From NCBI GenBank assembly GCA_037440365.1, contig JBBIUF010000019.1, positions 1 through 32,000 of the forward strand: a DNA stretch of 32,000 bases. Reading direction: 5' to 3'. The stretch is from Chloroflexota bacterium (GTDB taxonomy: Bacteria; Chloroflexota; Anaerolineae; UBA4142). Below, one piece after another: positions 1,260 through 22,282 of this stretch. Position 1 is the first letter of the stretch, and every line of letters starts with the position of its first letter. Below the pieces are notes generated by a model that had not been told where the DNA came from, did not search any database, and saw nothing but the letters and a program-made list of their open reading frames with translations. Made by a program: the position numbers and the translations under genes.

Positions 1260-1937
1260 TTATTGTTCCACGTCAATTAGTCCCTTGCGAATGGCGTACT
1301 TGACCAACTCGGTGCGGCTGTGCAAATTGAGTTTCGCCATAATGTTGGCGCGATGCCGCTCGACAGTTTTCACGCTGATCGTCAACCGGTCGGCGATCTC
1401 TTGATTCAGCGAGCCATCGGCGATGAGTTTCAAGACTTGATGCTCGCGCTCGGTCAAGCCGTCAAACGTTTCACGCTCGCCGCCGCCCTGCGCCACGCGC
1501 CCCATATAATCGCGCACGAGCGATTTAGCCAGCGCGGGGTACAGGAACACGCCGCCGCCGCACACCGTGCGGATCGCCATCACCAGGTCGGTGGGCGCGG
1601 CTTTTTTCGGCACATAGCCGGACGCGCCGGCGTCAAGCATCTTGAAAAAGTATTCGTCGCTCTCGTGCATCGTCAACGCCAGGATCGCCACCTGGGGAAA
1701 CGCCTTTTTGATTTGGCGCGTCGCTTCAAAGCCATCCAGGTCCGGCAAGGAAATATCCATCAGCACAATATCCGGTTGGAGTGAACGCACCTGGGTCACC
1801 GCGTCGCGCCCGTTATCCGCTTCGCCCACAATGTCAATATCGGTCTGCGCCTGCAACAGCATCCGCAAACCCGCGCGCACAATTTCGTGATCGTCCACCA
1901 TCAAGAGTTTAATTTTGGTCATGGCTTGCTCCGTCAC
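1260..1937 (-). CDS. NarL/FixJ-family response regulator (REC + LuxR-type HTH)
   Basis: IKLLMVDDHEIVRAGLRMLLQ receiver motif, DIVLMDISLPDLDG phosphoacceptor region, C-terminal LTEREHQVLKLIADGSLNQEIADRLTISVKTVERHRANIMAKL HTH. Confidence 0.96.
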   Translation of the reverse strand: MTEQAMTKIKLLMVDDHEIVRAGLRMLLQAQTDIDIVGEADNGRDAVTQVRSLQPDIVLMDISLPDLDGFEATRQIKKAFPQVAILALTMHESDEYFFKMLDAGASGYVPKKAAPTDLVMAIRTVCGGGVFLYPALAKSLVRDYMGRVAQGGGERETFDGLTEREHQVLKLIADGSLNQEIADRLTISVKTVERHRANIMAKLNLHSRTELVKYAIRKGLIDVEQ

Positions 1938-2057
1938 ACCCTAAACGCACGAGTGTCATGGCGAGGAGCTGGTTTTGCGACGAAGCAATCCGCAACGTCG
2001 CTGGAGATTGCTTCGCCGCTTCGCGGCTCGCAATGACAAAATGGAATTTTTCACCCG

Positions 2058-4004
2058 TTACGCCATTGGCACTTGGACCGTTATCGTGGTGCCGCGCCCC
2101 AGCACAGACTCGACACTGAATTTGCCGCCGACGAGTTCGACGCGCTCTTGCACGCCGAGCAAGCCCCACGCCAGTTGTTTGCCCTGCTTGCCCAGAATGT
2201 CTTGGACAATAAAACCGCGCCCGTTATCTTGCACGGTGAGCGTGACGAGTTGCTCGGCGAATTCCAAACGCACCGTCGCCTGGGTTGCGCGCGCGTGCCG
2301 CCCCACATTGTTCAAGCCCTCTTGCGCGATGCGAAACAAGACCGTTTCAACGCGCAAAGGCAAGCGGCATTTGTTGCCCGTCACTTGAAACTCGACCTGG
2401 AGTTTGGTGCGCTCGGCGTACTGTTGCGCAAACCAGCGCAATGCCGAAACCAAGCCCATATCGTCGAGGACGGACGGGCGCAAGTCCGCGACGAATTGGC
2501 GCAGACTGTCAATCGAACTCATCGTCATGGTTTTGAGTTGCGCGATTTGTTTTTGCGCGAGCGGTGGATTTTGCGCAATGGTTTCCTCGATGCCGCCCAA
2601 GCCCACCGCGAGCGCGGTCAGCATTTGCCCGGTTTCGTCGTGCAGTTCGCGCGCGATGCGTTTGCGTTCTTCTTCCTGCGCGGCGACCGCGCGTTCCAGC
2701 AATTGCCCGCGCAGATATTCGCGCTGTTGCACCTCGGCATAGAGCCGCGCATTTTCCAGCGCAATGCCCAGTTGCCGCGCGAGCGTTTGAATCACGGCAT
2801 AGTTTGAAAACGCGGCGCGATGCGCGAGGCACAATGCGCCGACAATGTCGCCGCGCGCGATGAGCGGAACGGCAATGAACGAGGTCGCCGTTTGGCTTGC
2901 CGAGTCATACGCGATCGCGCCCGATTCATACGCTTCATGCGCGGCGCGCTTGGCGCACTCGTCTTCTTTCAGCGCCAAGCGCAGATGCGGGTCGCGCATT
3001 TGACACGCCCGCCGGACGAGCCCGTGCGCGTCGCGATCATGCAAATACACAATGCCCGCGATCATCGGATCCAGCATCGTCACGATCTTGGCGAGTGACT
3101 CGTCAAGCAATTGTTGCATGTCCAGCGACGTGCCCAGGATGCGGCAGGTCTCGAACATGACCATCAATTCGCGCGTGGCGATTTCTTGCGCCGCAAAGCG
3201 CGCTTGGTTCGCGGCGTCCAAGCGCCGCGCGTATTCCACTTCAAAGACGCGCAACATTCGAATCACAAAAATTGCGAGGAATGCAATCGCAAGGATCCGA
3301 AAAACTTCGATGGGCAACCCGAACACGGCGAGAAACATATCGCTATTGAGCCAGGACGCCGGAAAGTACGGCGTGCGCACGTCAATGATCTGATCGAGCA
3401 ACGCGTACCAGCCAATCGCCAATGCCGCGCCCACCATCTCGCGCCCAAACTGCGGCATCCCGTCGCGCAAAAACGCGCGGCGTTGCGCGAGCATCGCCAA
3501 CACAGTTAGAATCGAACCGGGTAAACCGATGCTGTAATTCGTCCACTCTTCGGCAAGCGCGAGGCGGAGCGGAAACACATCGGTGGGTTGATACGCGTGT
3601 TGCAACCACAGAATCCCAGCCAGGTAAAGCATCGAAATCGCCATCGGGATCCAACGCAACCAACGTTTGTGTTGCGGCAACAGTTGGATCAGCAGGCGCA
3701 CGCCAAATTCCAGCAGGCAGAAAAACGACAAGCCCTTCCAGCCGATCTTGACGATTTCCGCCCATTCCGGCTCGCGCGCCACCGTGGGAATCTGCGCCGA
3801 GATCATGGAGAGCATTTCGATCCATTCATTGATGCCGTGGGTGATGCCAAACGCGGCGAGGAACGGCAAGGCGCGGAACAGACGCAATTGGCTCGTGCGC
3901 CCGGTTTCCAGCGCGACGGCAAAGCCGGTGATGAAATGCACCAGCCCATAGACAAAATAAATCGGAATGATGTTCGCTTGGAGAAATGCGGCCAGAACAA
4001 GCAT
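2058..4004 (-). CDS. Sensor histidine kinase: multi-TM N-terminus, GAF domain, HisKA_3/HATPase (NarX-like class)
   Basis: Hydrophobic N-terminal half; GAF-like region ILGTSLDMQQLLDESLAKIVTMLD...VIQTLARQLGIALENARLYAEVQ; H-box RKRIARELHDETGQMLTALAVGL; G boxes QDNGRGF / LLGVQERVELVGGKFSVESVLGRGTTITVQVP. Confidence 0.95.
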   Translation of the reverse strand: MLVLAAFLQANIIPIYFVYGLVHFITGFAVALETGRTSQLRLFRALPFLAAFGITHGINEWIEMLSMISAQIPTVAREPEWAEIVKIGWKGLSFFCLLEFGVRLLIQLLPQHKRWLRWIPMAISMLYLAGILWLQHAYQPTDVFPLRLALAEEWTNYSIGLPGSILTVLAMLAQRRAFLRDGMPQFGREMVGAALAIGWYALLDQIIDVRTPYFPASWLNSDMFLAVFGLPIEVFRILAIAFLAIFVIRMLRVFEVEYARRLDAANQARFAAQEIATRELMVMFETCRILGTSLDMQQLLDESLAKIVTMLDPMIAGIVYLHDRDAHGLVRRACQMRDPHLRLALKEDECAKRAAHEAYESGAIAYDSASQTATSFIAVPLIARGDIVGALCLAHRAAFSNYAVIQTLARQLGIALENARLYAEVQQREYLRGQLLERAVAAQEEERKRIARELHDETGQMLTALAVGLGGIEETIAQNPPLAQKQIAQLKTMTMSSIDSLRQFVADLRPSVLDDMGLVSALRWFAQQYAERTKLQVEFQVTGNKCRLPLRVETVLFRIAQEGLNNVGRHARATQATVRLEFAEQLVTLTVQDNGRGFIVQDILGKQGKQLAWGLLGVQERVELVGGKFSVESVLGRGTTITVQVPMA

Positions 4005-4170: not shown

Positions 4171-5742
4171 CTAGGCGTGCATCGGTTCAGCTTGGTGCGT
4201 AAAGACGGGCAAGTTTTTAGCGATCAATCCAAAGCCGACGACACCGAGTGAGAGCAAGAACACGCTAATGGTGATTTCGCCGACCGATGGAATATAGTAC
4301 GGGCCTGCGCCCGCATACGAAGCCCAGCCGAGCAAAGCCGTATTCAAGCGATTGAGAATCACGCCGCCCACGATCAGCCACGCCGAGGCATAGACAATGC
4401 GTGGATTGGCGCGCCCGCGCTTGGTGAGCAGAATGAGCATGGGCGCAATGACGCCCAAGCCCATTTCGATATAGTAGAGCGCGCTGTGGAAACCGGGCAC
4501 GAGCAAATAGGACGTTGCGCCGCGCGCGATCAGGTCAACCACCTTGAGCGCAAAATACAGCACCAGGACAATGCCCGCCGCGCGCCCCAGGTCCGCCAGC
4601 AAATCGCTTTCCAATTCCTTGCCAAACGCGCGCGCGCTTAGATTCGATTCGACAATCGTCATGCCCAAGCCGACGATCACCGCGCTCAGGAAGAAAAAGA
4701 CGGGAAGCAGAGGCGAGTACCAGAGCGGGTTGATCTTTTCTGGAAAGATCAGGAACAAGGTGCCGAGCGATGATTGATGCAACGTGGAGAGACACATGCC
4801 CAGGATCACAAGCGGGATCGTGATCGCGCGCATCACCTTGAGGGGCCAGTCGAGTTTGAAGCGTTCAAAAATGATCGGGCTAAATTCAAGCGCGAGCACC
4901 GTCGTGTAGAGAATGACACACCACGCCACTTCGAGCAAGGGCGAGTGCAAATTCCACATGAACATGGGATGCCACACATTGTACCAGCGTCCCAGGTCAA
5001 AGAGCAAACCGACGATGACCAGCAGGTAACCCAGGAGCGCGGTCAAGATCGCCGGGCGCACAATCGGCTGAAAGCGTTTAAGGTTGAACACGTGCACCGT
5101 GCCAGCCAGGACAAAGCCGCCTGCCGCCAGCGCGACGCCGCTCACCACATCAAAGCCAATCCAGATCCCCCACGGCGATGCGTCACTCATGTTCGTCATA
5201 TAGCCCAAGCCGAAAAAGAAGCGCACCACCGTCAAGCCGATGCCTGCCGTCCACAAGAGCGCGACCAAACTGACCGCGACCAGCGCGCGCCCGGATAAAC
5301 GCGGTAGTTGGATGCGTTGCAAAATTGGAAAGCGTTGGATCAGCGGCGTTGAAATTTCCGGCGTGAGTTCCGGGTGGAGTTTGCGCTCGAGCCACTTGCC
5401 GCCCAGCACCAATACGCCAATCGGCACCATCACGCGCAGGGCGAACAAGTACGCCAGCACCACCGCGTCGCGCGCCATGAGCAACACGGAGATGAACTGA
5501 TTCGTCGCGAGCATATAGCCGATGTAGAGAATCAGCATGATCGCAATCGCGCTTCCGGCGGCAACCAACGCGGGTGGAAAACTAGAGCGCGATTGAGCGG
5601 AAACAACGACCGTCCGATTCGTCAAACGCGGCTCAAGCCAGCGCTGTAACAAGTACAACACGCCAAAGATCAAAACGAACGGCACGACGAGCCGCGCAAT
5701 GAACATGAATACCAGCATAAAAAATTCGAGTGTGGGCGACAT
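4171..5742 (-). CDS. NrfD/HybB/PsrC-like polytopic quinone-interacting membrane subunit
   Basis: 523 aa, about 10 TM segments; sequence such as MGYMTNMSDASPWGIWIGFDVVSGVALAAGGFVLAGTVHVF and LGTLFLIFPEKINPLWYSPLLPVFFFLSAVIVGLGMTIVE, typical of HybB/HmcC-like NrfD proteins. Confidence 0.9.
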   Translation of the reverse strand: MSPTLEFFMLVFMFIARLVVPFVLIFGVLYLLQRWLEPRLTNRTVVVSAQSRSSFPPALVAAGSAIAIMLILYIGYMLATNQFISVLLMARDAVVLAYLFALRVMVPIGVLVLGGKWLERKLHPELTPEISTPLIQRFPILQRIQLPRLSGRALVAVSLVALLWTAGIGLTVVRFFFGLGYMTNMSDASPWGIWIGFDVVSGVALAAGGFVLAGTVHVFNLKRFQPIVRPAILTALLGYLLVIVGLLFDLGRWYNVWHPMFMWNLHSPLLEVAWCVILYTTVLALEFSPIIFERFKLDWPLKVMRAITIPLVILGMCLSTLHQSSLGTLFLIFPEKINPLWYSPLLPVFFFLSAVIVGLGMTIVESNLSARAFGKELESDLLADLGRAAGIVLVLYFALKVVDLIARGATSYLLVPGFHSALYYIEMGLGVIAPMLILLTKRGRANPRIVYASAWLIVGGVILNRLNTALLGWASYAGAGPYYIPSVGEITISVFLLSLGVVGFGLIAKNLPVFTHQAEPMHA

Positions 5743-5789
5743 GGGATTCCTCCAGGATCAAGCTCACAGGTTACAGCCTGACAAGCAAG

Positions 5790-6713
5790 TTATTTTTGAA
5801 GCGTGACCGGCGCGGGTTCCGCTTTGGCTTCATTGCGATGCGTCCACCATGCGATGCCGCTGAGCAAAACAGCCACCGAGCCAAGCACCGCAGGAATTTT
5901 TTCCATCGCCGCCCAGGTCAACTTGGGCAGGGGTTCATTCGGCAAGTCCGTGCGGAAACCTAGCACATCAAAGGGCGTGGCGGTGAGATACAAGCGGGAC
6001 GTGCCGCCAATCACATTTTCGCCATAGACTTGATCAATATACTGAGTCGGGTTCTGGCGGATGATCGTATGCGCGGTCGCCAACAATTCTTCGCGACTGC
6101 CATAGCTCAGCGCTTTTGCCGGACACGCGGCGACACACGCAGGCTTGTCGCGTTTGCCATCCGCCATACACGCTTGCTGACATTTATTGATCTTGGGATT
6201 CGGCGAATTCCAATCGTACTTGGGAATGCCAAACGGACACGCCGTCATGCAATAGCGGCAACCGATGCACACATTGGCGTCATACGCCACCGTGCCATCC
6301 GCTTTTTTGTACAACGCACCCACCGGACACACTGACACGCACGCAGGGTCCTGGCATTGCATACAACCGAACTTGTACGTTTTGACAATAGGTTTGTTTA
6401 GATCTGTCGAAATGTTTTTAAAGCAAACAATCGAGAGGGTCGTTGCCGAAAGACACGTGGGATTGTCGTCAGTGGGCAGGTTGTTGGCAACCTTGCACGC
6501 AGTCTGGCAACTCTTGCAACCCACGCACTTGGTCGTGTCAATCAACACGGCTGAGCCGGCGCGCGGCGAAATTGGCACGGACGCATTCGGATTCAACAAC
6601 ACCGGTGGTGCAATCTTGGCTCCCACCCCGGCTAACGCCGCGCTCGCCCCCACTAATTTAAGAAAATCACGTCGTGAAATATTCATCACTCGCCTCCTTG
6701 CGGCAATCATCAA
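5790..6713 (-). CDS. HybA/HmcB-like 4Fe-4S ferredoxin subunit with Tat-like signal and C-terminal TM anchor
   Basis: N-terminal NISRRDFLKLVGASAALAGVG; cysteine motifs CVGCKSCQTACK, CMQCQDPACVSVCP, CIGCRYCMTACPFG, CQQACMADGKRDKPACVAACP; C-terminal VLGSVAVLLSGIAWW. Confidence 0.94.
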   Translation of the reverse strand: MMIAARRRVMNISRRDFLKLVGASAALAGVGAKIAPPVLLNPNASVPISPRAGSAVLIDTTKCVGCKSCQTACKVANNLPTDDNPTCLSATTLSIVCFKNISTDLNKPIVKTYKFGCMQCQDPACVSVCPVGALYKKADGTVAYDANVCIGCRYCMTACPFGIPKYDWNSPNPKINKCQQACMADGKRDKPACVAACPAKALSYGSREELLATAHTIIRQNPTQYIDQVYGENVIGGTSRLYLTATPFDVLGFRTDLPNEPLPKLTWAAMEKIPAVLGSVAVLLSGIAWWTHRNEAKAEPAPVTLQK

Positions 6714-7504: not shown

Positions 7505-7891
7505 GTGGGCAATGCTAAACTAGCTGACATTGCGCAGATCATGAAAATCCTCGGCGACCCGTCGCGTTTGGCGATTTTCAATTTGCTCATGCAAGGTGTG
7601 CAATGCAATTGCGAGCTGGGCAACAAGCTCAACCTACCGATGAATCTCATTTCGCATCACCTCAAAGTGTTGCGCGTGGCAGGCTGGGTGAACGCCGCGC
7701 GCGATCCAACTGACGCGCGTTGGATTTATTATTCAGTGAACGATCAAGTGCTGGAGCAACTGCGCGGGCAATTAAATCAATTTCTGGACGCGCGGCGGAT
7801 TCAACCGCGTCAGCCAGTGTGTGGACCACATGCACTTGCGAAAAAACCACCCCAATCCTATCGTTCAATGACTAACCGGAGGCAATCTTGA
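7505..7891 (+). CDS. arsR: ArsR/SmtB-family transcriptional repressor
   Basis: GTG start; ADIAQIMKILGDPSRLAIFNLLMQGVQCNCELGNKLNLPMNLISHHLKVLRVAGWVNAARDPTDARWIYYSV; heads the arsenic cluster. Confidence 0.93.
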   Translation: MGNAKLADIAQIMKILGDPSRLAIFNLLMQGVQCNCELGNKLNLPMNLISHHLKVLRVAGWVNAARDPTDARWIYYSVNDQVLEQLRGQLNQFLDARRIQPRQPVCGPHALAKKPPQSYRSMTNRRQS

Positions 7892-8319
7892 AACGTCGGG
7901 TTCTGTTTTTGTGCACCGGAAATTCAGCGCGTAGTCAGATCGCCGAAGCACTCGTGAATCATCAGCGCGGCGACCAATGGCAAGCGTTCTCGGCTGGGAC
8001 ACGCCCCACCGGTAGCGTGCACCCATTCGCAATTGAGGTGATGCGTGAAATTGGCGTGGACATTGCCAACGCCCACAGTAAATCCACGGATGAATTTCGC
8101 AACGCCGCGTTCGATCAAGTTGTGACGGTGTGCGATCATGCGGCGGCGGATTGTCCCGTGTGGCTGGGTCAGGGCAAACGCACGCACATCGGTTTTCCTG
8201 ATCCCGCACGTGGCACGCTGGCTGATTTTCGCGCAACCCGCGACGCCATTCAAACTCGCGTCATTCCATTTTTGGATGCCCAATCAGATGAGCTGGCGCG
8301 AGCTGAGGTGGATCAATGA
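7888..8319 (+). CDS. arsC: Arsenate reductase, low-molecular-weight phosphatase type
   Basis: FLCTGNSARSQIAEAL P-loop-like CX5R motif; TVCDHAAADCPVW; GFPDPARG; overlaps the arsR stop. Confidence 0.94.
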   Translation: MKRRVLFLCTGNSARSQIAEALVNHQRGDQWQAFSAGTRPTGSVHPFAIEVMREIGVDIANAHSKSTDEFRNAAFDQVVTVCDHAAADCPVWLGQGKRTHIGFPDPARGTLADFRATRDAIQTRVIPFLDAQSDELARAEVDQ

Positions 8320-9569
8320 GTGGCGCGCAAACATTTTGGGCGGACGTAGATGACCAAGGTCGGCTTGCGTTACCCGCCGAACTCGTCGCGCAATACGGCT
8401 TGACGCCGGGCGCGCGTCTGCGAATTGATAGCGAAACGAATAGCGTGCGCCTGCATCGCCCAGTGACCCAGCTCGTCAAACTCTACATCGAACCGACCAG
8501 TCGGTGTAATCTCACCTGCCGCACCTGTATGCGCAACACATGGGATGAGCCGCTCGGTTCGATGACCATGCCAACGTTTGATCGCATTGTGCAGGGGCTA
8601 GCCCAGTTGACGACCCCGCCGACGATCATGTTTGCCGGGATTGGCGAGCCAACCGCGCATCGTCGGTTGGTCGAGATGATTCAACGCGTCAAAGCGCTGG
8701 GGTCTAGTGTCGAGCTGACCACGAATGGCACGTTGTTGACCGAGGAACGTTCGCGGCAATTGATCGCCGCGGGGTTGGATGTGTTGTGGGTTTCGCTTGA
8801 CGGGGCAACGCCGGAGAGTTACGCCGATGTGCGTTTGGGCGCGCAGTTACCTCACGTGATTGAAAATCTTTCGCGCTTGCGCAAATTGCGCCGCGGGGCG
8901 CACCATCCCAAACCGGAAATCGGGATTGCGTTTGTCGCCATGAAACGGAACATTAACGATCTCCCGCGCGTGTTGGCGCTGGGTCGCTCGGTCGGCGCAA
9001 AACTTTTTTCGGTCAGCAACGTTCTGCCGTATACCGCCGAGATGCGCGATGAATTGCTCTATGCACGCACGTTGATGGACATTACCTATTTTTCATCGTC
9101 TTGGTTACCGCGTCTCAGTTTGCCCAAGATGGATATTAACGAAACAACGCGCGATGCGTTTTTTAGCGCATTGAACAGCGGCGCCAGTGTCACCTTTGCC
9201 GGCAATAAATTGAGCGGCGCGAATGATGTCTGCGGATTTATCGAAGGCGGCGCGATGGCGATTGGGTGGAATGGCAATGTGAGTCCTTGCCCACCGCTGT
9301 TGCATAATCATGTGGTTTATTTGCGCGAACGCCAGCGCGCGCTCCGCCGTCATATCATTGGCAATTTGAACGAGCGCGACCTGGTGGATTTGTGGGCGGA
9401 TCCCGCTTACGTGGCTTATCGCGAGCGCGTGCAAGGGTTCGGTTTCGCGCCTTGCACATTTTGCGGCGGCTGTGACATGCTGGATTCCAACACCGAGGAC
9501 TGTCTCAGCAATCAATTCCCGGTTTGTGGCGGATGTTTGTGGGCGCAAGGCGTGATCCAGTGTCCATAA
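8316..9569 (+). CDS. AbrB-like N-terminal domain + radical SAM + SPASM-like C-terminus; resembles tungsten-cofactor oxidoreductase radical SAM maturases
   Basis: N-term ADVDDQGRLALPAELVAQYGLTPGARLRID (AbrB/SpoVT-like); EPTSRCNLTCRTCMRNTW (CX3CX2C); FAGIGEPTAH; C-term CTFCGGCDMLDSNTEDCLSNQFPVCGGCLWAQGVIQCP. Confidence 0.85.
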   Translation: MSGAQTFWADVDDQGRLALPAELVAQYGLTPGARLRIDSETNSVRLHRPVTQLVKLYIEPTSRCNLTCRTCMRNTWDEPLGSMTMPTFDRIVQGLAQLTTPPTIMFAGIGEPTAHRRLVEMIQRVKALGSSVELTTNGTLLTEERSRQLIAAGLDVLWVSLDGATPESYADVRLGAQLPHVIENLSRLRKLRRGAHHPKPEIGIAFVAMKRNINDLPRVLALGRSVGAKLFSVSNVLPYTAEMRDELLYARTLMDITYFSSSWLPRLSLPKMDINETTRDAFFSALNSGASVTFAGNKLSGANDVCGFIEGGAMAIGWNGNVSPCPPLLHNHVVYLRERQRALRRHIIGNLNERDLVDLWADPAYVAYRERVQGFGFAPCTFCGGCDMLDSNTEDCLSNQFPVCGGCLWAQGVIQCP

Positions 9570-9617
9570 CATCTGCATCGAACCGGTGTGGCATAATCAA
9601 CTCAAGGAGAATGGAAT

Positions 9618-10712
9618 ATGCACCAAGCAACTGCAGTGACGCAATCGCAAAGCAATGTATTTGAACAGCTCTCCTGGCTTGATCGTTTTTTGCCGCTCTG
9701 GATTTTTGCGGCTATGGCACTCGGCATCCTGCTCGGCGCGGTCGCGCCCGGCATCAAGGCTGTGTTCAACGCGCTTTCGATTGGAACCGTATCGCTCCCG
9801 ATTGCAATCGGTTTATTGTGGATGATGTATCCCGTCCTGGCTAAAGTCAAGTATGAAGAACTAGGCAAGATCGCTCAAGCGTGGGAGCAATTCGGCGTCT
9901 CGTTAATCCTGAACTGGATCATTGGTCCGATCATCATGTTTGCGCTCGCGTGGATTTTTCTGCCTGACCTGCCGCACTTTCGCACTGGCTTGATCATCAC
10001 CGGTTTGGCGCGGTGTATTGCGATGGTCCTGATCTGGAACATGCTCGCCGGCGGCGACAGCGAATACTGCGCGGTGCTGGTCGCGCTGAATAGCATTTTC
10101 CAAATCGTGATGTACTCACCGCTGGCATATTTCTTCCTGGTCATTGTGCCGGGATGGTTTGGCGTGCCAGGCACCGTCGTCAACATTGAGATGGGCGACA
10201 TTGCCAAAAGCGTCTTGATCTTTTTAGGGATTCCACTCGCGGCAGGTATTTTCACACGCTTTTATTTTCTGCGCACCCGCGGCACGGTATGGTATGAAAC
10301 GCGCCTGATGCCGCGCCTGGGTCCAACCGCCATGGTCGGTTTATTATTTACAATTGTCGTCATGTTCTCAATGCAAGGCGACAAGATTCTCGCCGCGCCG
10401 CTCGACGTAGTGCGCGTGGCGATCCCGCTATTAGCATATTTCGTCATCATGTTCTTTACATCATTCGCGTTATCACTCTGGCGCAAATTCCCGTACGAAC
10501 TCGCGGCAACGCAATCGTTCACGGCGGCAAGCAACAATTTTGAATTGGCGATTGCGGTCGCGGTCGGCACCTTTACGATCGCGTCGCAAGAAGCGCTCGC
10601 GGCGGTGATTGGTCCGCTGATCGAAGTGCCGGTACTGATCGGCTTGGTCTATGTGGCGCTGTGGCTTAAACGAACCTGGTTCGCCAGCGCGCCAACACAA
10701 TCGGCAAGCTAA
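9618..10712 (+). CDS. acr3: ACR3-family arsenite efflux permease
   Basis: LDRFLPLWIFAAMALGILLGAVAPGIKAVFNALSIGTVSLPIAIGLLWMMYPVLAKVKYEEL; WIFLPDLPHFRTGLIITGLARCIAMVLIWNMLAGGDSEYCAVLVALNSIFQI; FTAASNNFELAIAVAVGTF. Confidence 0.97.
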   Translation: MHQATAVTQSQSNVFEQLSWLDRFLPLWIFAAMALGILLGAVAPGIKAVFNALSIGTVSLPIAIGLLWMMYPVLAKVKYEELGKIAQAWEQFGVSLILNWIIGPIIMFALAWIFLPDLPHFRTGLIITGLARCIAMVLIWNMLAGGDSEYCAVLVALNSIFQIVMYSPLAYFFLVIVPGWFGVPGTVVNIEMGDIAKSVLIFLGIPLAAGIFTRFYFLRTRGTVWYETRLMPRLGPTAMVGLLFTIVVMFSMQGDKILAAPLDVVRVAIPLLAYFVIMFFTSFALSLWRKFPYELAATQSFTAASNNFELAIAVAVGTFTIASQEALAAVIGPLIEVPVLIGLVYVALWLKRTWFASAPTQSAS

Positions 10713-10752
10713 ACCCAGCGATAGAAATAAATTTTGATTAAGGAAAATCCCA

Positions 10753-11502
10753 ATGACAAACCTGATCGCGCCCGATCAAATTCGGCAAGCGGTTCAAACG
10801 CATTACGCCGACCTGGCACGCAATGCAACCCCGTGTTGCGAACCCAGCGCGTGTGATTGCCATTCCAACTATCCCGATCCGCTGGCGAATGCCGTGCCGG
10901 CAGACATTGCCAATTTTTCGCTCGGTTGCGGCGATCCGATCACGCTTGCCGCGCTCCAGCCCGGCGAGACCGTGATCGATCTCGGATCAGGCGGCGGCTT
11001 GGATTGCTTTCTTGCCGCGCAACGGGTTGGCGCAACCGGGCACGTCATCGGCGTGGATATGACGCCGGAAATGTTAGCCAAAGCGCGTGGGAATGCGGAA
11101 CGAATGGGGATCGCGAATGTCGAATTTCGTAACGGATACATTGAACATTTGCCTGTGGCTGACGGCGAAGCAGATGTCGTAATCTCAAATTGCGTGATCA
11201 ATCTGTCGCCCGACAAGTCCCAAGTCTTTCGCGATATTTATCGCGCTCTGCGATCCGGCGGACGCCTCTCGGTGTCGGATATTGTCACGCATGGCGACTT
11301 GCCGGAACTCGTGCAAAAAAGTATGGAAGCCTGGGGCGCATGTGTCGCAGGCGCGTTAGATGTCAAGGACTATATCGGCGGCTTGCGAACCGCCGGGTTT
11401 GTGGATATTCACGTCGAGCCCAAAGGCAAGTTTGATGCAGGATTATCCAATTTGCCAATTCACGCGCCGTTCTCGGCAAGCATCACCGCGCGCAAACCCT
11501 GA
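10753..11502 (+). CDS. arsM: Arsenite S-adenosylmethionine methyltransferase
   Basis: VIDLGSGGGLDCFLAAQRVGATGHVIGVDMTPEMLAKAR; VISNCVINLSPDK; EAWGACVAGAL; N-terminal CC/CDC cysteines; arsenic operon context. Confidence 0.95.
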   Translation: MTNLIAPDQIRQAVQTHYADLARNATPCCEPSACDCHSNYPDPLANAVPADIANFSLGCGDPITLAALQPGETVIDLGSGGGLDCFLAAQRVGATGHVIGVDMTPEMLAKARGNAERMGIANVEFRNGYIEHLPVADGEADVVISNCVINLSPDKSQVFRDIYRALRSGGRLSVSDIVTHGDLPELVQKSMEAWGACVAGALDVKDYIGGLRTAGFVDIHVEPKGKFDAGLSNLPIHAPFSASITARKP

Positions 11503-16229: not shown

Positions 16230-17522
16230 ATGGACGTACTCCGCAACTTGCCACCCGAACCACGCTCAGTCGAAGAAACCGGCGTCAATCTCTCATTTCT
16301 CGCCGACCTTACGCTCAAGACAATGTACACGCGCGGCTTTTTGAAAGGTCACGAAATCGCCGATGCGCTTAGACTGCCCTTTGCGAATGTCGTGGATAGT
16401 GTGCTAGATTATTTGCGCCGCGAACATCTCACCGAAGTCAAAGGGTCGAGCGGCTTTGGCGAATCGTCGTACCAATATGTTATTTCCGAGAGCGGACGCG
16501 CGCGCGCGCGCGAGTTGATGGATCAAAATCAGTACGTTGGACCTGCGCCGGTCAAACTCGACGCGTACAACAAACAAGCACTCGCGCAATCCATGACCGG
16601 ACAAATGCTCAAATTAGACGAACTCAAACGCGCGCTGGCGCACCTGGTTTTGAGCGACACGTTCATCAACCAACTGGGTCCCGCGATCAATTCCGGCAAA
16701 TCCATTTTTCTCTTTGGCAACGCGGGGAACGGCAAGACCGCCATCGCCGAAGCCATCGGCAATCTGCTCCCCGGCGCAATTTTCATTCCGTATGCGGTCA
16801 GCGTTGATGGACACATCATTCGCGTGTTTGATGCCCTCCATCACCAACCCATTCCCGAAAAAACAGAGGATGACGATACCGCGCCGGGTTTACGCCAAGG
16901 CGAGCGGTATGATCGCCGCTGGGTGCTGATTCATCGCCCGATGATCGCCGTCGGGGGTGAATTGGTGTTGGAGAATCTCGACCTGGTTTTTGACGCGACC
17001 ATGAAATACTATGAAGCCCCGTTCCAAATGAAAGCGAACGGCGGTGTATTTCTGGTAGATGACTTTGGCCGCCAACAAGTCCGTCCGCGCGAATTGTTGA
17101 ATCGCTGGATTGTGCCGCTCGAAAAGCGCGTGGATTATCTCACGCTCGCCACGGGTCACAAAATTGACGTGCCCTTTGACGCGCTGATCGTCTTTTCGAC
17201 CAATCTCAACCCAGATGAATTAGTGGACGAAGCATTCCTGCGCCGCATCCGCTATAAAATCCACGTTGCCGATCCAACCTGGGAAGAGTACCGCGAAATT
17301 TTTATGCGCGTCGCCGCAAAAAACGGCATCCCGTATTCGGACGACGGTTTGAAATATATAGTGATGGAGCATTACATCAAACCCAAACGCAAACCGCGCG
17401 CGGTCCATCCGCGCGACATGCTCGATGAACTCGCCGACATTGCGCGCTTTCGCGGCATCCCACCCACCCTCACGAAAGAACTGATCGATCTCGCGTGCCA
17501 AGCGTATTTTCTCAAAAACTAA
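16230..17522 (+). CDS. AAA+ ATPase of unknown function
   Basis: Walker A LFGNAGNGKTAIAEAIG, Walker B-like GGVFLVDDFGRQQ, sensor VFSTNLNPDELVDEAFLRRIRYKI; N-terminal winged-helix-like region. Confidence 0.85.
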   Translation: MDVLRNLPPEPRSVEETGVNLSFLADLTLKTMYTRGFLKGHEIADALRLPFANVVDSVLDYLRREHLTEVKGSSGFGESSYQYVISESGRARARELMDQNQYVGPAPVKLDAYNKQALAQSMTGQMLKLDELKRALAHLVLSDTFINQLGPAINSGKSIFLFGNAGNGKTAIAEAIGNLLPGAIFIPYAVSVDGHIIRVFDALHHQPIPEKTEDDDTAPGLRQGERYDRRWVLIHRPMIAVGGELVLENLDLVFDATMKYYEAPFQMKANGGVFLVDDFGRQQVRPRELLNRWIVPLEKRVDYLTLATGHKIDVPFDALIVFSTNLNPDELVDEAFLRRIRYKIHVADPTWEEYREIFMRVAAKNGIPYSDDGLKYIVMEHYIKPKRKPRAVHPRDMLDELADIARFRGIPPTLTKELIDLACQAYFLKN

Positions 17523-17553
17523 ACCGGCCCAGACCCCACTCACCGAGGAGGCA

Positions 17554-18444
17554 ATGATGTTTGGATCCGATATTCTCGACGTAGCCATTGGTATGATCTT
17601 TGTATTCTTTACCGTCAGTCTGGTTTGCACGGCGATTGGCAATAAGGTTTCCGATTTTCTCAACTGGCGTTCCCAAAACCTTGAAAACGGCATTCGCACT
17701 TTGATTATGAGCGGCGACAGCAAAATGGTCGAGCAACTCTACGCGAGTTCCCTGGTCAAATCAATTGTGCCCGACGGCAAGAAACCCATTTGGATTCCGG
17801 ACAAGACGCTGATGCTCGCGGTGTTTGACACCTTTGTGCCAGGCGCAGCGGGGTTGACCAAGATTGACGAATTGCGCGATGCGATCAAGCAAATGAACGA
17901 CAGCTCGCCGCTCAAGGGCAAATTGCTCGCGCTTGTCACTGCCGCGGGTGATAACGTCGACGGTTTGTACAAGAATTTCGCGCAATGGTACGATTCAGTT
18001 GAAGCTCAAATGACGGCCGTGTATAAGCAAAAAATGTGGCTCTTTTCCATGGGCGTGGGCGTCGTCGTGAGCATCGTCTTGAATGTGGATACCATTGCGG
18101 TGGGTCAAAGTTTGTGGCGCGATTCGGCGGTGCGCGCGCAAGTAGTTTCCGCCGCTAATCAATATACCGTGCAGGCCGTCCAAAGCGTAAACGCCCAAGC
18201 CGCGCAAGAGAATACACAAAAAGCCATCCAGACCTTGAATCGGCTCAACCTGCCCATTGGCTGGAATGTCACCGTCAAACCCGCCATGTCTATCGCGCCA
18301 ACCGATTTCGTAGCCGCCACCGTTCCGATCGGCGGTCTCGCCTGGTTACTCAAACTTGCAGGATGGTTGGTTACCGGCGCGGCGGGCGCGCTGGGTGCAC
18401 CGTTCTGGTTCGACATTTTGAAAAAAGTGACCAATCGCGGATAA
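17554..18444 (+). CDS. Conserved-looking membrane protein of unknown function
   Basis: 296 aa; N-terminal TM VAIGMIFVFFTVSLVCTAIGNKVSDFL, internal TM MWLFSMGVGVVVSIVLNVDTIAVG, C-terminal TM plus GAPFWFDILKKV. Confidence 0.7.
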   Translation: MMFGSDILDVAIGMIFVFFTVSLVCTAIGNKVSDFLNWRSQNLENGIRTLIMSGDSKMVEQLYASSLVKSIVPDGKKPIWIPDKTLMLAVFDTFVPGAAGLTKIDELRDAIKQMNDSSPLKGKLLALVTAAGDNVDGLYKNFAQWYDSVEAQMTAVYKQKMWLFSMGVGVVVSIVLNVDTIAVGQSLWRDSAVRAQVVSAANQYTVQAVQSVNAQAAQENTQKAIQTLNRLNLPIGWNVTVKPAMSIAPTDFVAATVPIGGLAWLLKLAGWLVTGAAGALGAPFWFDILKKVTNRG

Positions 18445-18450
18445 CCTCGA

Positions 18451-18483
18451 ACGCCTTGCAGAAAAATCTGCAAGGCGTTTTTT
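18451..18483 (+). terminator. Rho-independent terminator
   Basis: ACGCCTTGCAGA-AAAA-TCTGCAAGGCGT followed by TTTTT; 7 nt after the preceding stop codon. Confidence 0.93.
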
Positions 18484-18494
18484 GATACGGCGCA

Positions 18495-18680
18495 TTGGTT
18501 CAGAGGATGTGCGTCAAACTTTTGGGCGTTGCCCGCCGCCGATTAGAAATATTCGGCGTCTCAATAAAGTGGAAACTCGATAAGTTTGTAACAACGGTTT
18601 CCAATTGATTTTCACCTCGCTGAGCCACCGAATACATTCGGTGGCGTTCATCCAAAAACGTGACGCACACCTCGGTTCAA
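18495..18680. repeat. 186-bp inverted-repeat-bounded, multi-hairpin segment upstream of the AOR gene (MITE-like or structured leader)
   Basis: Imperfect inverted ends TTGGTTCAGAGGATGTGCGTCAAACTTTTGG ... CCAAAAACGTGACGCACACCTCGGTTCAA; internal stems CGCCGA/TCGGCG, TGGAAAC/GTTTCCA, GCCACCGAA-TACA-TTCGGTGGC. Confidence 0.6.
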
Positions 18681-18833
18681 ATTCAAGGTTGACAGCAAGT
18701 AGAGGTTACGTTAAAATACCGTAAGAAATTCTCCGCGCGATATTTCATTTCGATGCAACTTGCCGGAGTTGCTTGGAATGACGAACGGTTCCAACGCAGT
18801 TGTTAGGCAAAAACAATTTCCTAGGAGGGAAAC

Positions 18834-20645
18834 ATGAACGGATTTGCCAATCGGGTTGCCCATGTCGATTTATCGACAGGGAAAGTTGCGTACGAGCCAA
18901 TCCCAGAAGAATGGGCGCGCAAGTATATTGGCGCGCGCGGGCTCGGCGTCAAGTACGTGTTTGAGAACGGACCCCAGGTTGATCCCCTTAGCCCCGAAAA
19001 CATCCTCTGCTTTATGAACGGTCCGCTGACTGGCTCGGAAGCCAACATGAGCGGGCGCATGGCAATTGTGACCAAGTCACCTTTGACTGGCACCGTCACC
19101 GATAGTCATCATGGCGGTTGGTCGGCGGCGCGCTTGCGCTGGGCTGGATTGGATGGTTTGATCTTCAAGGGCAAGTCGGCTAAACCGGTTTATGCCTATG
19201 TGCATGATAACACGGTCGAGTTGCTCGATGCATCTGAACTTTGGGGCAAGGGTGTCCACGCCACAGTCAAATTTTTCCAAGCCAAGTACGGCGAAAAAGA
19301 TTTGAGCGTGATCGCCATCGGCCCTGCCGGTGAAAACCTGGTGCGCTATGGCGCATGGGTCAACGAAAACGATCGCGCGAGCGGTCGCGGCGGCACGGGT
19401 TGCGTAGGCGGCAGTAAAATGCTCAAAGCCGTCGTCATCAAATCCGAACGCAGAATTCCACGCGCGGCGGATCGTGAAAAATGGGACGCGGCGCATAAAC
19501 GCGCGCTCGCAACCATCATGGACGAAAAGAACATTACCAGCCCACGCAAAGGCGGCTTGTCGGTCTATGGCACGAACGTATTGACGAACATCACAAGCAA
19601 CATGGGCGCATATCCAGTCCGCAACGGTCAGTCCACCTCGTTTGGCGATCGCGCCGAATTTCTGAGCGGCGAGTACGTCAAAGCGAACATCCTGGTCAAC
19701 GATCCCACGTGCCATGCTTGCCCGGTCGCGTGCAAAAAAGAAGTTGAGATTAAAGATGGTCCATTCAAAGGCCTGCGCATGGAAAGCATCGAGTACGAAC
19801 CCGCGTGGTGCCTCGGCGGCAACTGCGGCAACGATAACATTGCCGCGGTCGCCAAGATGATCGATCAAGCCAACGACTATGGCATGGACGCCATCGAAAT
19901 CGGCGATGTGCTGGCAACCTTCATGGAAGCCACCCAGCGCGGCTATGTCAAAGACGACGCCGGCTTGCAATGGGGCGATTACATGAGCATGGTTGCCACC
20001 GTGGATCAAGTCGCGTTCCGCAAGGGCATCGGCGATGTGCTGGCAAACGGCGTGGATGCAACGGCAGACCATTACGGTCATCACGAACTTGCGATGAGCG
20101 TCAAGGGTCAAGGCATCCCGGCATACGATCCGCGCGGCATCAAAGGCATGGGCATTGCGTATGCCACCAGCAACCGCGGCGCCTGTCACCTCCGCGCCTA
20201 CACGCCCGCCGTCGAGCTTTCGCTTATTTCGCTCACCGCCGATCCGCTCCTGTGGAAAGGCAAAGGCGAACTGACGAAACTATTGCAAGACCTGCACGCA
20301 TTCTCTGATAGTCTCGACCTGTGCAAATTTAGCGCGTTCGCCGAAGGCGGCGATGAGTACGCGCAACAGTATGCCGCAACGATGGGCGTCGAGTATACCG
20401 CGAACGATGTGCTGAAAGCCGGCGAGCGCATCTACAATCTCGAACGCTACTACAACAACCTGGCTGGTTTCCGCGAAGGCAGTGATTACCTGCCCAAGCG
20501 TTTCACGGACGAACCCTCAACCGAAAAAGGTTCCAAGGGTCACGTCTCGGAATTGCCGCAAATGCTGGACGAGTATTACACGGCACGCGGCTGGGTCAAT
20601 GGCGTGGTGCCGGAAGCCAAGTTGAAGGAACTGGAAATTTTGTAA
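18834..20645 (+). CDS. Aldehyde:ferredoxin oxidoreductase family tungstopterin enzyme
   Basis: GARGLGVKYVFENG; GPLTGSEANMSGRMAIVTKSPLTGTVTDSHHGG; 4Fe-4S motif DPTCHACPVACKK ... DLCKF; EYEPAWCLGGNCGNDNI; IKGMGIAYATSNRGACHLRAY. Confidence 0.97.
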   Translation: MNGFANRVAHVDLSTGKVAYEPIPEEWARKYIGARGLGVKYVFENGPQVDPLSPENILCFMNGPLTGSEANMSGRMAIVTKSPLTGTVTDSHHGGWSAARLRWAGLDGLIFKGKSAKPVYAYVHDNTVELLDASELWGKGVHATVKFFQAKYGEKDLSVIAIGPAGENLVRYGAWVNENDRASGRGGTGCVGGSKMLKAVVIKSERRIPRAADREKWDAAHKRALATIMDEKNITSPRKGGLSVYGTNVLTNITSNMGAYPVRNGQSTSFGDRAEFLSGEYVKANILVNDPTCHACPVACKKEVEIKDGPFKGLRMESIEYEPAWCLGGNCGNDNIAAVAKMIDQANDYGMDAIEIGDVLATFMEATQRGYVKDDAGLQWGDYMSMVATVDQVAFRKGIGDVLANGVDATADHYGHHELAMSVKGQGIPAYDPRGIKGMGIAYATSNRGACHLRAYTPAVELSLISLTADPLLWKGKGELTKLLQDLHAFSDSLDLCKFSAFAEGGDEYAQQYAATMGVEYTANDVLKAGERIYNLERYYNNLAGFREGSDYLPKRFTDEPSTEKGSKGHVSELPQMLDEYYTARGWVNGVVPEAKLKELEIL

Positions 20646-20681
20646 GCCGGGCAAGAGTGTGTCTGCATAATTGTACAAAAA

Positions 20682-20711
20682 TTCGGGGCGACTGAAAACA
20701 GTCGCCCCGAA
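20682..20711. terminator. Strong hairpin between convergent genes, likely terminator (best U-run on the minus strand)
   Basis: TTCGGGGCGACTG-AAAA-CAGTCGCCCCGAA, 13-bp perfect stem; minus-strand reading is followed by TTTT. Confidence 0.75.
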
Positions 20712-20725
20712 CTATTTCAAATTGT

Positions 20726-20965
20726 TCATCCCCCGGCGCGAATTGTTTTCAATTCAAACGCCGCCAACATAATCGGAAGCGTTTTCTCATCGCCCTCAAA
20801 ATCTACGTGAATTGTGCCGATACGGAGCGAGCCCACCGGCAAAAATTCGCCGTCACGGATCGTCGCCGACCAATCCGCGCCGCGCACCACATAATCTTCG
20901 GTCACGCCGCCGCCGACTTCGATCAAATAATCACGCGCAAGCCACATGGGAATACCGCGATACAT
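20726..20965 (-). CDS. 79-aa MoaD-associated small protein, resembling the C-terminal domain of MoaD-related proteins
   Basis: MYRGIPMWLARDYLIEVGGGVTEDYVVRGADWSATIRDGEFLPVGSLRIGTIHVDFEGDEKTLPIMLAAFELKTIRAGG; starts 4 nt after the moaD-like stop. The longer track ORF start is inside the upstream gene. Confidence 0.75.
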   Translation of the reverse strand: MYRGIPMWLARDYLIEVGGGVTEDYVVRGADWSATIRDGEFLPVGSLRIGTIHVDFEGDEKTLPIMLAAFELKTIRAGG

Positions 20966-20969
20966 TCGC

Positions 20970-21257
20970 TCAATTCGCACAGCCACCTCCAACAGGCGGA
21001 AAAATATCCAGCGCGTCTTGTTCCGTGATCGGCGTGTCGAGTCCTTGCGGCAGGTATTCCGATTGTCGTCCGTTGACAAAGACGTGAATATAATCGGTTA
21101 ATTGCCCTGCCGCATCCCATACTTTTTCCGCCAACTTGGGACGAATATCCGTGACCGCTTTTAACGCCGTTCGCGCGGTCACCGGCGTCGCGGGATCAAC
21201 CACAACCGTTTTCCCGCCTGCCAATTCGCGCAATGTCGCATAAAAATTCACCCGCAT
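20970..21257 (-). CDS. MoaD/ThiS-like beta-grasp sulfur carrier protein with tail beyond diglycine
   Basis: MRVNFYATLRELAGGKTVVVDPATPV...YIHVFVNGRQSEYLPQGLDTPITEQDALDIFPPVGGGCAN; AGGGAG RBS upstream of ATG at 21257. Confidence 0.9.
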   Translation of the reverse strand: MRVNFYATLRELAGGKTVVVDPATPVTARTALKAVTDIRPKLAEKVWDAAGQLTDYIHVFVNGRQSEYLPQGLDTPITEQDALDIFPPVGGGCAN

Positions 21258-21364
21258 AAAAGCTCCCTTGTGATAATAGTCATAGCCGAAACCGACCCAT
21301 CCGTTTATACTACGAACCAGGTAAATCGCAAAGGTTGCGACAATCAACGAATGACAGGTGCACT

Positions 21365-22282
21365 ATGATTATAACACAAGCCGATCCAAAGCTACAACCA
21401 CTCGTCGTGCCAATGCTTGAAGTGAGCGGACTGATGCCAACACCCGGCGATGAATGGACGCGCTTGCGCCGCTTTGTCGGTTTTGATCACGCTGACGAGA
21501 TGGCAATGGTGCAAACGATCGAGCCGCTGTTCGCGCGCGGACTAGATATCGTCACAGCGAATTACGATTACTTGCAACGGGTGCCAGAGACCGCGGCGAT
21601 CCTGGGTTGGGAAAATGGCGCAGACCCAACACATCTCGCCGAGCGCCGCCGCTTTTTAACCGTGTGGCTTGCGCGCACCTTCGGGCTCGACCTGGGTACA
21701 GACTTTGCCGAGTATTTATTTTATGCGGGCAAAGCACACGCCGCGCACGGACCGCGTCACATTCACACGCCAGAAACCTGGATCACGGGCGGCATTAGTT
21801 TGACGCAGACCACCTTCGCGCGCATCATTGCCGAAAACGTGCGTGATGCCGCGCTTGCCGCGAATGCGATTGCCGGATGGAACAAGTATCTAATGATCCA
21901 ACTCGATCTGATGCTGATGGGCTATCGCGCCGCGCGCGCGCTTGACGACGGAACCCTGCCGGTGCCGGTGGCATTCTTTGGACGCTTACGCGACAAAGCC
22001 AATACCTCCGCACTCGTCGCACACGCCAATCCCGATGCCACCGTTAGCGAGGTGTTGCGCAAATTGCTCAACTATTTTCCCGCCGTGCGCAATGAAGCGA
22101 TGGAAATTGTGTGGCGTGAAAACGCTGAACCCGATTCACTGTGGTCGCACGTGGAACCCGTCTATACGCCCAAACCCGCATGGCGTTTGCTTTTGAATGG
22201 CAAAGACTTGCGGTATCACGGTGGATTTGATGTACGCTTGAGCGCCAACGATCAACTCGATTTTTTTCCGCCCGGACGCTAA
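21365..22282 (+). CDS. Protoglobin-like (globin-coupled-sensor-like) domain fused to C-terminal MoaD/ThiS-like beta-grasp domain
   Basis: N-terminal part LRRFVGFDHADEMAMVQTIEPLFARGLDIVTANYDYLQRVPETAAIL ... RRRFLTVWLARTFGLDLGTDFAEYLFYAGKAHAAHGPRHIHTPETWITGGISL; C-terminal VPVAFFGRLRDKANTSALVAHANPDATVSEVLRKLLNYFP...WRLLLNGKDLRYHGGFDVRLSANDQLDFFPPGR. Confidence 0.75.
   Translation: MIITQADPKLQPLVVPMLEVSGLMPTPGDEWTRLRRFVGFDHADEMAMVQTIEPLFARGLDIVTANYDYLQRVPETAAILGWENGADPTHLAERRRFLTVWLARTFGLDLGTDFAEYLFYAGKAHAAHGPRHIHTPETWITGGISLTQTTFARIIAENVRDAALAANAIAGWNKYLMIQLDLMLMGYRAARALDDGTLPVPVAFFGRLRDKANTSALVAHANPDATVSEVLRKLLNYFPAVRNEAMEIVWRENAEPDSLWSHVEPVYTPKPAWRLLLNGKDLRYHGGFDVRLSANDQLDFFPPGR

Follow-up and report, generated by a model that had tools for sequence, protein, structure and literature searches.

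The window analysed here is a 32,000-nucleotide stretch (positions 1 to 32,000, forward strand) of contig JBBIUF010000019.1 from a Chloroflexota bacterium (assembly GCA_037440365.1; Anaerolineae, UBA4142). It exhibits a gene for a 305-aa protein in which a protoglobin-type globin domain is followed by a MoaD-like beta-grasp domain (Table 1). This gene lies beside the gene of a tungsten-type aldehyde:ferredoxin oxidoreductase (AOR), in the order AOR(+), DUF1952(-), MoaD/SAMP1-like protein(-) and fusion(+), with genes for a B12-binding domain protein and MeaB further downstream. The MoaD and fusion genes are divergent and separated by a 107-nt spacer. The open reading frame (ORF) enclosing the fusion gene (21335..22282, plus strand) opens with TTG. 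We place the start at the ATG at 21365, because it is preceded by AGGTG, a ribosome-binding site, and because it agrees with the N-termini of homologues of 304-305 aa matching over 100% of their length. The gene limits given in a preliminary description of this locus, made from the DNA sequence alone, are thus right.

Table 1. Position and supporting evidence of the fusion gene, its domains and the associated genes in the window.
Feature	Position	Strand	Evidence and remarks
Protoglobin / MoaD-like beta-grasp fusion gene	21365..22282	+	305 aa plus stop; ORF, homologue N-termini, ribosome-binding site, domain matches
Protoglobin-type globin domain (residues 30-189)	21452..21931	+	PF11563 60.3 bits, alignment to 2veb, Foldseek, conservation
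SAMP/MoaD-like beta-grasp domain (residues 196-305)	21950..22279	+	Fold and profile matches; 12-residue Trp-rich insert, FPPGR end
Tungsten-type AOR, 603 aa	18834..20645	+	Pfam AFOR_N 245 bits, AFOR_C 415 bits
DUF1952 protein (PF09189, "MoaD_arch"), 79 aa	20726..20965	-	Pfam 25.1 bits; starts 4 nt past the MoaD stop
Stand-alone AOR-linked MoaD/SAMP1-like protein, 95 aa	20970..21257	-	Pfam ThiS 41.2 bits, NCBIfam SAMP1 82.8 bits
Radical S-adenosylmethionine (SAM)/SPASM protein, 417 aa	8316..9569	+	Pfam; 9 kb upstream of the AOR gene

The N-terminal half exhibits the Pfam Protoglobin match (PF11563) that had been expected within residues 1-190, with a score far above the gathering cut-off of 25 bits (E-value = 2.9 × 10-16). 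We aligned the globin half with its single-domain relatives (alignment A2) and matched the resulting profile against solved structures. The best match is the Methanosarcina acetivorans protoglobin (MaPgb, PDB 2veb; E-value = 2 × 10-16, residues 14-185). Tyr67 is aligned with Tyr61(B10) of 2veb and His125 with the proximal His120(F8), and the earlier recognition of an FYD-like helix ("ANYDYL") and of a proximal-histidine segment ("AGKAH") proved correct. Residue 98, aligned with Phe93(E11), is leucine in the window protein and phenylalanine in about 95% of the family members. Neither Tyr67 nor His125 varies among 120 homologues, 83 locus copies or the distant single-domain relatives of A2. The fusion family also keeps His90, Arg94-96 and, within the F-G insertion, His128 and His134. 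Arg94 is invariant in the single-domain relatives as well, whereas His90, His128 and His134 are conserved specifically in the fusion family and distinguish it from MaPgb and other single-domain protoglobins. Like those proteins, the fusion protein has a globin extended by a pre-A segment at the N-terminus and by a long F-G insertion, and the B10, E11 and F8 positions align as well. In contrast, MaPgb is a single domain of about 195 aa, with no beta-grasp after its H-helix.

A profile built from 60 members of the family also matches the sensor globins 8h17, 5ohe, ApPgb and 2w31. The globin-STAS anti-anti-sigma factor 7o0i is among the matches of the A2 profile. A Foldseek comparison with the PDB gives the globin half target-normalised template-modelling (TM) scores of 0.83-0.89 to the globins of the globin-coupled sensors 8h17, 5ohe and 2w31, and of 0.70-0.77 to MaPgb. 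In the model, a 3-on-3 sensor-globin fold is present. Haem binding by this half is strongly expected from its sequence, because the conserved haem-ligand residues align with those of the M. acetivorans protoglobin.

The C-terminal half exhibits similarities to small sulfur-carrier proteins. The preliminary description had predicted a ThiS match (PF02597) in this part; the match is there (residues 202-303, E-value = 5.6 × 10-4), but its score of 20.8 bits lies just under the curated cut-off of 22.5. The NCBIfam models SAMP1 (E-value = 3.4 × 10-9, 37.1 bits against a curated cut-off of 60) and archaeal MoaD (moaD_arch; E-value = 2 × 10-5, 25 bits against 49.5) behave alike. The family profile matches SAMP3 (2m19; E-value = 7 × 10-10), the Thermus MoaD-related protein 1v8c (2 × 10-6), SAMP1 (2l52) and Pyrococcus furiosus MoaD (1vjk). 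Foldseek aligns the modelled domain with the SAMP1, SAMP3 and MoaD structures 4hro, 3po0, 2m19 and 2l52 at target-normalised TM-scores of 0.72-0.84. Judged from these profile and fold matches, the homology to MoaD and SAMP is clear despite the sub-cut-off scores. A BLASTP comparison of the fusion protein with the neighbouring MoaD yields 25% identity over 103 columns (E-value = 4 × 10-6), with an insertion of 12 residues in the fusion protein. Family-specific invariant residues (Trp250, Trp260, Trp273 and Arg274) are found in and around this insertion.

The fused domain shares with SAMP1, SAMP3 and MoaD (2l52, 3po0, 2m19, 1vjk) the beta-grasp fold and the motifs F..LR, ..NG.. and D...FPP. Unlike these carriers it is not a free small protein, it contains the Trp-rich insert, it scores below the family cut-offs, and it exhibits PPGR in place of the terminal Gly-Gly. 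This replacement, correctly read in the preliminary description, is found in 119 of the 120 homologues (PPTR in the other one), and Gly304 and Arg305 are present in 83 of 83 locus copies. A Gly-Gly tail occurs in none of the 120 homologues and in none of the 83 copies; a lone glycine precedes the terminal arginine, and the tail is 1-2 residues shorter than that of MoaD. Adenylation or thiocarboxylation of this tail is therefore unlikely, as had been supposed. The fused beta-grasp is homologous to MoaD/SAMP but lacks the Gly-Gly that defines these carriers, and we do not class it as a conventional sulfur carrier. Two loci (L076 and L077) contain separate ORFs of 104-106 aa ending in FPPGR, that is, fusion-type beta-grasps standing alone. 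Because the tblastn match in L077 extends over 1191 nt, these could be fusion genes that have been split or frameshifted.

An AlphaFold2 model computed from the family alignment has a mean predicted local distance difference test (pLDDT) of 92.4 and a predicted TM-score (pTM) of 0.88. Helices span residues 27-194 and the beta-grasp begins at residue 198, the long H-helix passing almost directly into it through a 3-residue linker. The pTM and the passage from helix to strand at residues 194-198 imply that the two domains are rigidly coupled to each other. Sequence, profile and fold agree for both halves, and the protoglobin-MoaD fusion first proposed for this gene is real. The protein has no cysteine at all, and no hydrophobic N-terminal signal-like segment is seen in its sequence (read directly, not with a predictor).

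The fusion protein has 799 relatives at E-value <= 10-3 in a protein collection clustered at 90% identity. The best 120 of these 799 all measure 272-339 aa, and each shares 49% identity or more with the window protein. A library of 50% representatives contains only about ten clusters of full length. The next relatives after these clusters are single-domain globins of about 185 aa and globin-Rieske fusions. The latter (P0184, P0208 and P0221; also P0175, P0197 and P0204) are globins with one or two C-terminal Rieske [2Fe-2S] domains, called by eye from CxH...CPWHG motifs rather than by profile search. They seem to represent a further, undescribed type of globin chimera that carries its own electron donor. 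In the databases the fusion proteins bear only unspecific names: "molybdopterin converting factor small subunit" (IMG), "MoaD/ThiS family protein" and "protoglobin domain-containing protein" (NCBI). Many carry precomputed PF11563 and PF02597 annotations, and none has an assigned function. Full-text literature searches returned no paper describing the globin-MoaD architecture, and the 2021 study of globin repertoires (the Photoglobin paper) does not mention it. The earlier statement that no globin/MoaD fusion had been described thus stands for the literature, but not for the databases, where the relatives and their domains are already recorded. The fusion family is conserved and undescribed in the literature searched, yet present in sequence databases.

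A relative is encoded on 230 stretches of one-genome-per-species GTDB contigs, and the counts of loci given below refer to the best 80 of these 230. Those loci are almost all from Chloroflexota metagenome-assembled genomes (MAGs), belonging to Anaerolineae, Caldilineaceae, Ardenticatenales and Promineofilum. Two loci with a fusion-AOR-DUF1952-MoaD cluster (L071 and L080) come from MAGs labelled Candidatus Methylomirabilis, the other loci being all from Chloroflexota; mis-binning or horizontal transfer could explain these labels.

The adjacency to AOR pointed out in the preliminary description is conserved and not a matter of chance: an AOR gene (64-79% identical) lies within 1 kb of the fusion gene in 49 of the 80 loci. 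An AOR is found at 1-7 kb in three more loci, and three others, where the contig ends nearby, exhibit only MoaD and DUF1952. In 11 loci a nos operon closes with the fusion gene. Neither AOR nor nos genes are present in 7 loci with at least 3 kb covered on both flanks, where the neighbours are housekeeping genes such as CinA, MurJ and UvrD. The last 7 loci are too short to judge. The arrangement seen most frequently has fusion(+) ahead of AOR(+), with DUF1952 and MoaD following in the reverse orientation; a radical-SAM/SPASM gene often accompanies them. A MoaA gene stands between the fusion and the AOR in L039; in L015 (7564-10213) this place is taken by a CooF-like 4Fe-4S protein and a protein of the prismane/CO-dehydrogenase family (598 bits). 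Among these loci and those of the reverse survey described below, the fusion is co-directional with MoaD-DUF1952 in L031, L055, L079, L081, L087 and L158. In L110 (7889-9294) and L112, both of the reverse survey, the AOR is followed, on the opposite strand, by DUF1952 with the fusion directly behind it, and there is no stand-alone MoaD within 6 kb. The co-directional loci and these two fit a beta-grasp that takes the position of a MoaD.

In the nos group (L030, L051, L052, L054, L060, L062, L063, L065, L073, L074 and L083, the fusion lying at about position 10001 in most; mostly Caldilineaceae and Anaerolineales) the fusion gene directly follows nosZ, a membrane protein, nosF, nosY and nosL on the same strand, as confirmed by Pfam. 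No MoaD is found near these loci. The operons are often flanked by a regulator of the Crp/Fnr family that lacks the N-terminal Cys cluster, and by a YwiC-like gene. We considered that the nos-linked copies might form a separate paralogue, and rejected this. In a neighbour-joining tree they are interspersed with the AOR-linked copies, and the key residues are identical in all contexts. The copies are those of one orthologous protein with changing neighbourhoods, and not of two paralogues.

The reverse survey, with the window AOR as query, covered 80 metagenome loci with an AOR of 54-84% identity. Nearly all have MoaD downstream, with or without DUF1952 and the radical-SAM gene. Among the loci covered on both flanks the fusion is present in 6 and absent in 25, and we accordingly reject the fusion as an obligatory part of the AOR cluster. 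It is a lineage-specific accessory to an AOR / ubiquitin-like / radical-SAM cluster that has already been described. Iyer et al. 2006 (PMC1779556) reported MoaD genes linked to AOR, as well as an AOR-MoaD fusion in Azoarcus, and an AOR / ubiquitin-like protein / radical-SAM arrangement is known in Thermococcus kodakarensis (tk1064-tk1066; PMC11323500). The window has this same cluster, with an AOR, a MoaD, a DUF1952 protein and a radical-SAM orthologue (9 kb upstream of the AOR); MoaD and DUF1952 are likewise paired in the Thermus fusion 1v8c. The fused beta-grasp is homologous to the cluster MoaD. Unlike the window, the described clusters contain no globin, and the fusion occurs also in nos operons. 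The linkage of the fusion to AOR, MoaD and DUF1952 is thus strong, but neither exclusive nor obligatory.

The small proteins of the cluster differ from the fusion in their tails. The neighbouring MoaD was first said to end in Gly-Gly. This does not hold for the window copy, which ends in PPVGGGCAN, three residues past GGG. Its orthologues end in ...FP[AP]VGGG, about two thirds stopping exactly at GGG and the rest having 1-14 residues more. The extended copies would need C-terminal trimming to serve as carriers. The DUF1952 protein of the window ends in IRAGG; among DUF1952 copies beside MoaD in loci L001-L164, a ubiquitin-like ...R[AG]GG tail is present in 49 of 63 and ...RAGA in 13. Since the DUF1952 protein beside MoaD also ends in this way, two small proteins with Gly-Gly ends are encoded by the AOR cluster. 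In PDB 1v8c the MoaD and DUF1952 domains are found in one chain. No E1 (MoeB/ThiF/UbaA) and no MoaE or ThiG gene was found in the window or among the recurrent neighbour families of the related loci, and no JAMM peptidase among the annotated window genes or those same families.

The radical-SAM protein of the window is 63% identical over its full length to that of L046 (15987-17240), and other genomes encode its orthologue within the AOR-MoaD-DUF1952 cluster. In the window it is an uncertain member of the system. Its gene is located between genes for a low-molecular-weight phosphatase (ArsC-like), an SBF/Acr3-type transporter and a SAM methyltransferase (7888-11502, plus strand), an arrangement resembling those of arsenic resistance. 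Pfam matches neither of two sizeable ORFs directly upstream of the AOR (16230-18444, plus strand; 430 and 296 aa); on inspection by eye, the former seems to contain a Walker-A-like GNAGNGKT motif and the latter looks membrane-associated. Farther away on the minus strand, an NrfD-like membrane subunit and a 4Fe-4S dicluster protein (4171-6713) have a polysulfide-reductase-like look, with no catalytic subunit identified. This module is adjoined by a LuxR-type response regulator and a GAF histidine kinase (1260-4004).

Searches for regulatory elements around the fusion gene were negative. The DNA upstream of the fusion was scanned for an FNR/CRP box (TTGAT-N4-ATCAA, at most 2 mismatches) in 84 sequences, with only 7 weak, scattered matches, none of them in the window. 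No Rfam family, including the Moco/Wco riboswitch, was found in the whole window at the gathering threshold, in 18300-21500 at E-value <= 1, or in 7 related loci. When 37 fusion-to-AOR spacers (median 169 nt) were inspected for a conserved operator or palindrome, only the ribosome-binding site AGGAGGTGA recurred.

The closest known parallels of the overall architecture are the globin-coupled sensors (HemAT, AfGcHK 5ohe, GsGCS 2w31, DosC and BpeGReg). In these, too, a sensor globin at the N-terminus precedes a non-globin domain, and their globins are the best structural matches of the fusion globin. The globin-STAS protein of the RsbR type (7o0i) likewise has a small docking domain as output. 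Unlike these sensors, the fusion protein has no MCP, GGDEF/EAL/HD-GYP, kinase, STAS or cyclase domain, and only the ThiS/MoaD/SAMP-like domain occupies the C-terminus. A MoaD/SAMP-like beta-grasp as the C-terminal domain of a globin-coupled sensor was not found in the literature searched. The novelty lies in this ubiquitin-like output domain on a globin-coupled/protoglobin theme, which is unprecedented there.

We tentatively propose, as the likeliest of the explanations considered, that the fusion protein is a haem-based sensor of gas or redox state, with the beta-grasp as a docking output on the maturation or the activity of O2-sensitive enzymes. In this proposal we infer the mechanism, and with it the binding of haem, the kind of ligand, the partner and the direction of regulation. 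The protoglobin-type module would bind haem b and would sense a gas (O2, NO or CO) or the redox state. The beta-grasp, deprived of its conjugatable tail, would be a ubiquitin-like mimic that docks on a partner protein. In the main genomic context the candidate partners are the DUF1952 protein, the radical-SAM maturase, an E1/MoeB-type enzyme encoded elsewhere, or the AOR, any of which would normally recognise the AOR-linked MoaD. Haem ligation or redox state would make this binding conditional, and tungsten-cofactor maturation or AOR activity would thereby be coupled to anoxia. Such a post-translational partner-switching logic is suggested by analogy with the globin-STAS proteins, among which 7o0i already combines a globin with a small docking output. 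In the same proposal the protein would be cytoplasmic.

Several observations weigh against this sensor reading. The partner is putative, and the window has no E1/MoeB or MoaE gene. A mechanism operating on the MoaD machinery only is too narrow, because the 11 of 80 loci in nos operons without a nearby MoaD and the 7 with neither context carry identical key residues. Related AOR clusters work without the fusion (25 without against 6 with). The globin-Rieske fusions among the nearest non-fusion relatives hint at redox chemistry and not at signalling. Finally, the confident packing of the two domains in the model could mean that the beta-grasp is merely structural. The preliminary description had placed the protein in the control of tungstopterin supply or of the tungsten enzyme. 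Its link to AOR and MoaD is borne out by the 49 of 80 loci, whereas a function specific to tungstopterin is contradicted by the nos operons and the unlinked loci. The nos context, the unlinked loci and the single locus containing carbon monoxide dehydrogenase (CODH) argue for O2/NO-sensitive anaerobic metalloenzymes, rather than tungstopterin itself, as the common denominator. A narrower form of the proposal makes the protein a haem-gated ubiquitin-like decoy: O2, NO or CO at the haem would set whether the beta-grasp blocks or recruits tungsten-AOR maturation or, in some lineages, that of other anaerobic metalloenzymes such as N2O reductase. We regard this specific form as improbable.

The main alternative is a protective or detoxifying haem enzyme. 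The globin would consume or sequester O2 or NO, as an NO dioxygenase or O2 scavenger, and so shield labile metalloenzymes, while the beta-grasp would serve a structural purpose, oligomerisation or the docking of an electron donor. The occurrence of the gene with three O2-sensitive systems (AOR, nos operons and the CooF/CODH pair of L015) is in keeping with such a role, as are the rigid packing of the domains (pTM 0.88) and the relationship of the globin to single-domain globins and to Rieske fusions with their built-in electron donor. However, the fusion protein itself has no reductase or redox domain and no cysteine. NosZ is a periplasmic enzyme, and direct shielding of NosZ is unlikely for a protein in which no signal-like segment is recognised by eye. 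Moreover, the invariant PPGR tail and the Trp-rich insert suggest a specific interaction surface and not a passive scaffold. The nos, unlinked and CODH-containing loci keep a protective enzyme under consideration; we hold it to be less likely than not, and somewhat less probable than the sensor.

A cofactor-handling chaperone would explain the tight linkage to the AOR-MoaD-DUF1952-radical-SAM maturation genes and the MoaA gene of L039. The beta-grasp and the globin-fold body would then bind a metallocofactor intermediate, tungstopterin or another, or pass it on during insertion, with the haem or the His/Arg cluster as its binding site and not as a sensor. The family-specific His90, His128 and His134 and the Arg94-96 cluster, present in addition to the haem ligand, could be accommodated in this way. 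The nos-operon and unlinked contexts are not expected of a chaperone of this kind, nor are the AOR clusters of other lineages that do without the fusion. The canonical haem-pocket residues are fully conserved, and a globin fold that binds a pterin has no known precedent. A chaperone appears very unlikely. Least probable of all, and hardly credible, is a genuine sulfur carrier or protein modifier, whose C-terminal Arg would be trimmed or whose tail would be activated unconventionally, with the globin as cargo or regulator: the homology to SAMP1, SAMP3 and MoaD and the genuine ubiquitin-like neighbours, some with short post-GGG extensions needing trimming, speak for it, but the shortened tail never exhibits more than a single Gly before the terminal Arg, and neither a JAMM peptidase nor an E1 is recorded among the genes surveyed.

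The physiological role of protoglobins is still unclear, and no globin-coupled sensor is known with anything but a classical signalling output. A protoglobin hard-wired to a non-conjugatable MoaD/SAMP-like domain, and tied to a tungsten-enzyme cluster or to nos operons, provides a testable hypothesis on protoglobin sensing. If the fusion protein is only a protective globin, it would be a modest addition to globin diversity. If it is indeed a decoy, no earlier case would exist of a gas-sensing globin in control of a sulfur relay of the ubiquitin-like/E1 type or of metallocofactor insertion. Such a protein would also bring a new type of ubiquitin-like pseudo-modifier into the biology of prokaryotic ubiquitin-like proteins. 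Facultatively anaerobic Chloroflexota are abundant in sludge, sediments and hot springs, and the same hypothesis covers how these bacteria protect, or time the assembly of, their O2-sensitive metalloenzymes.

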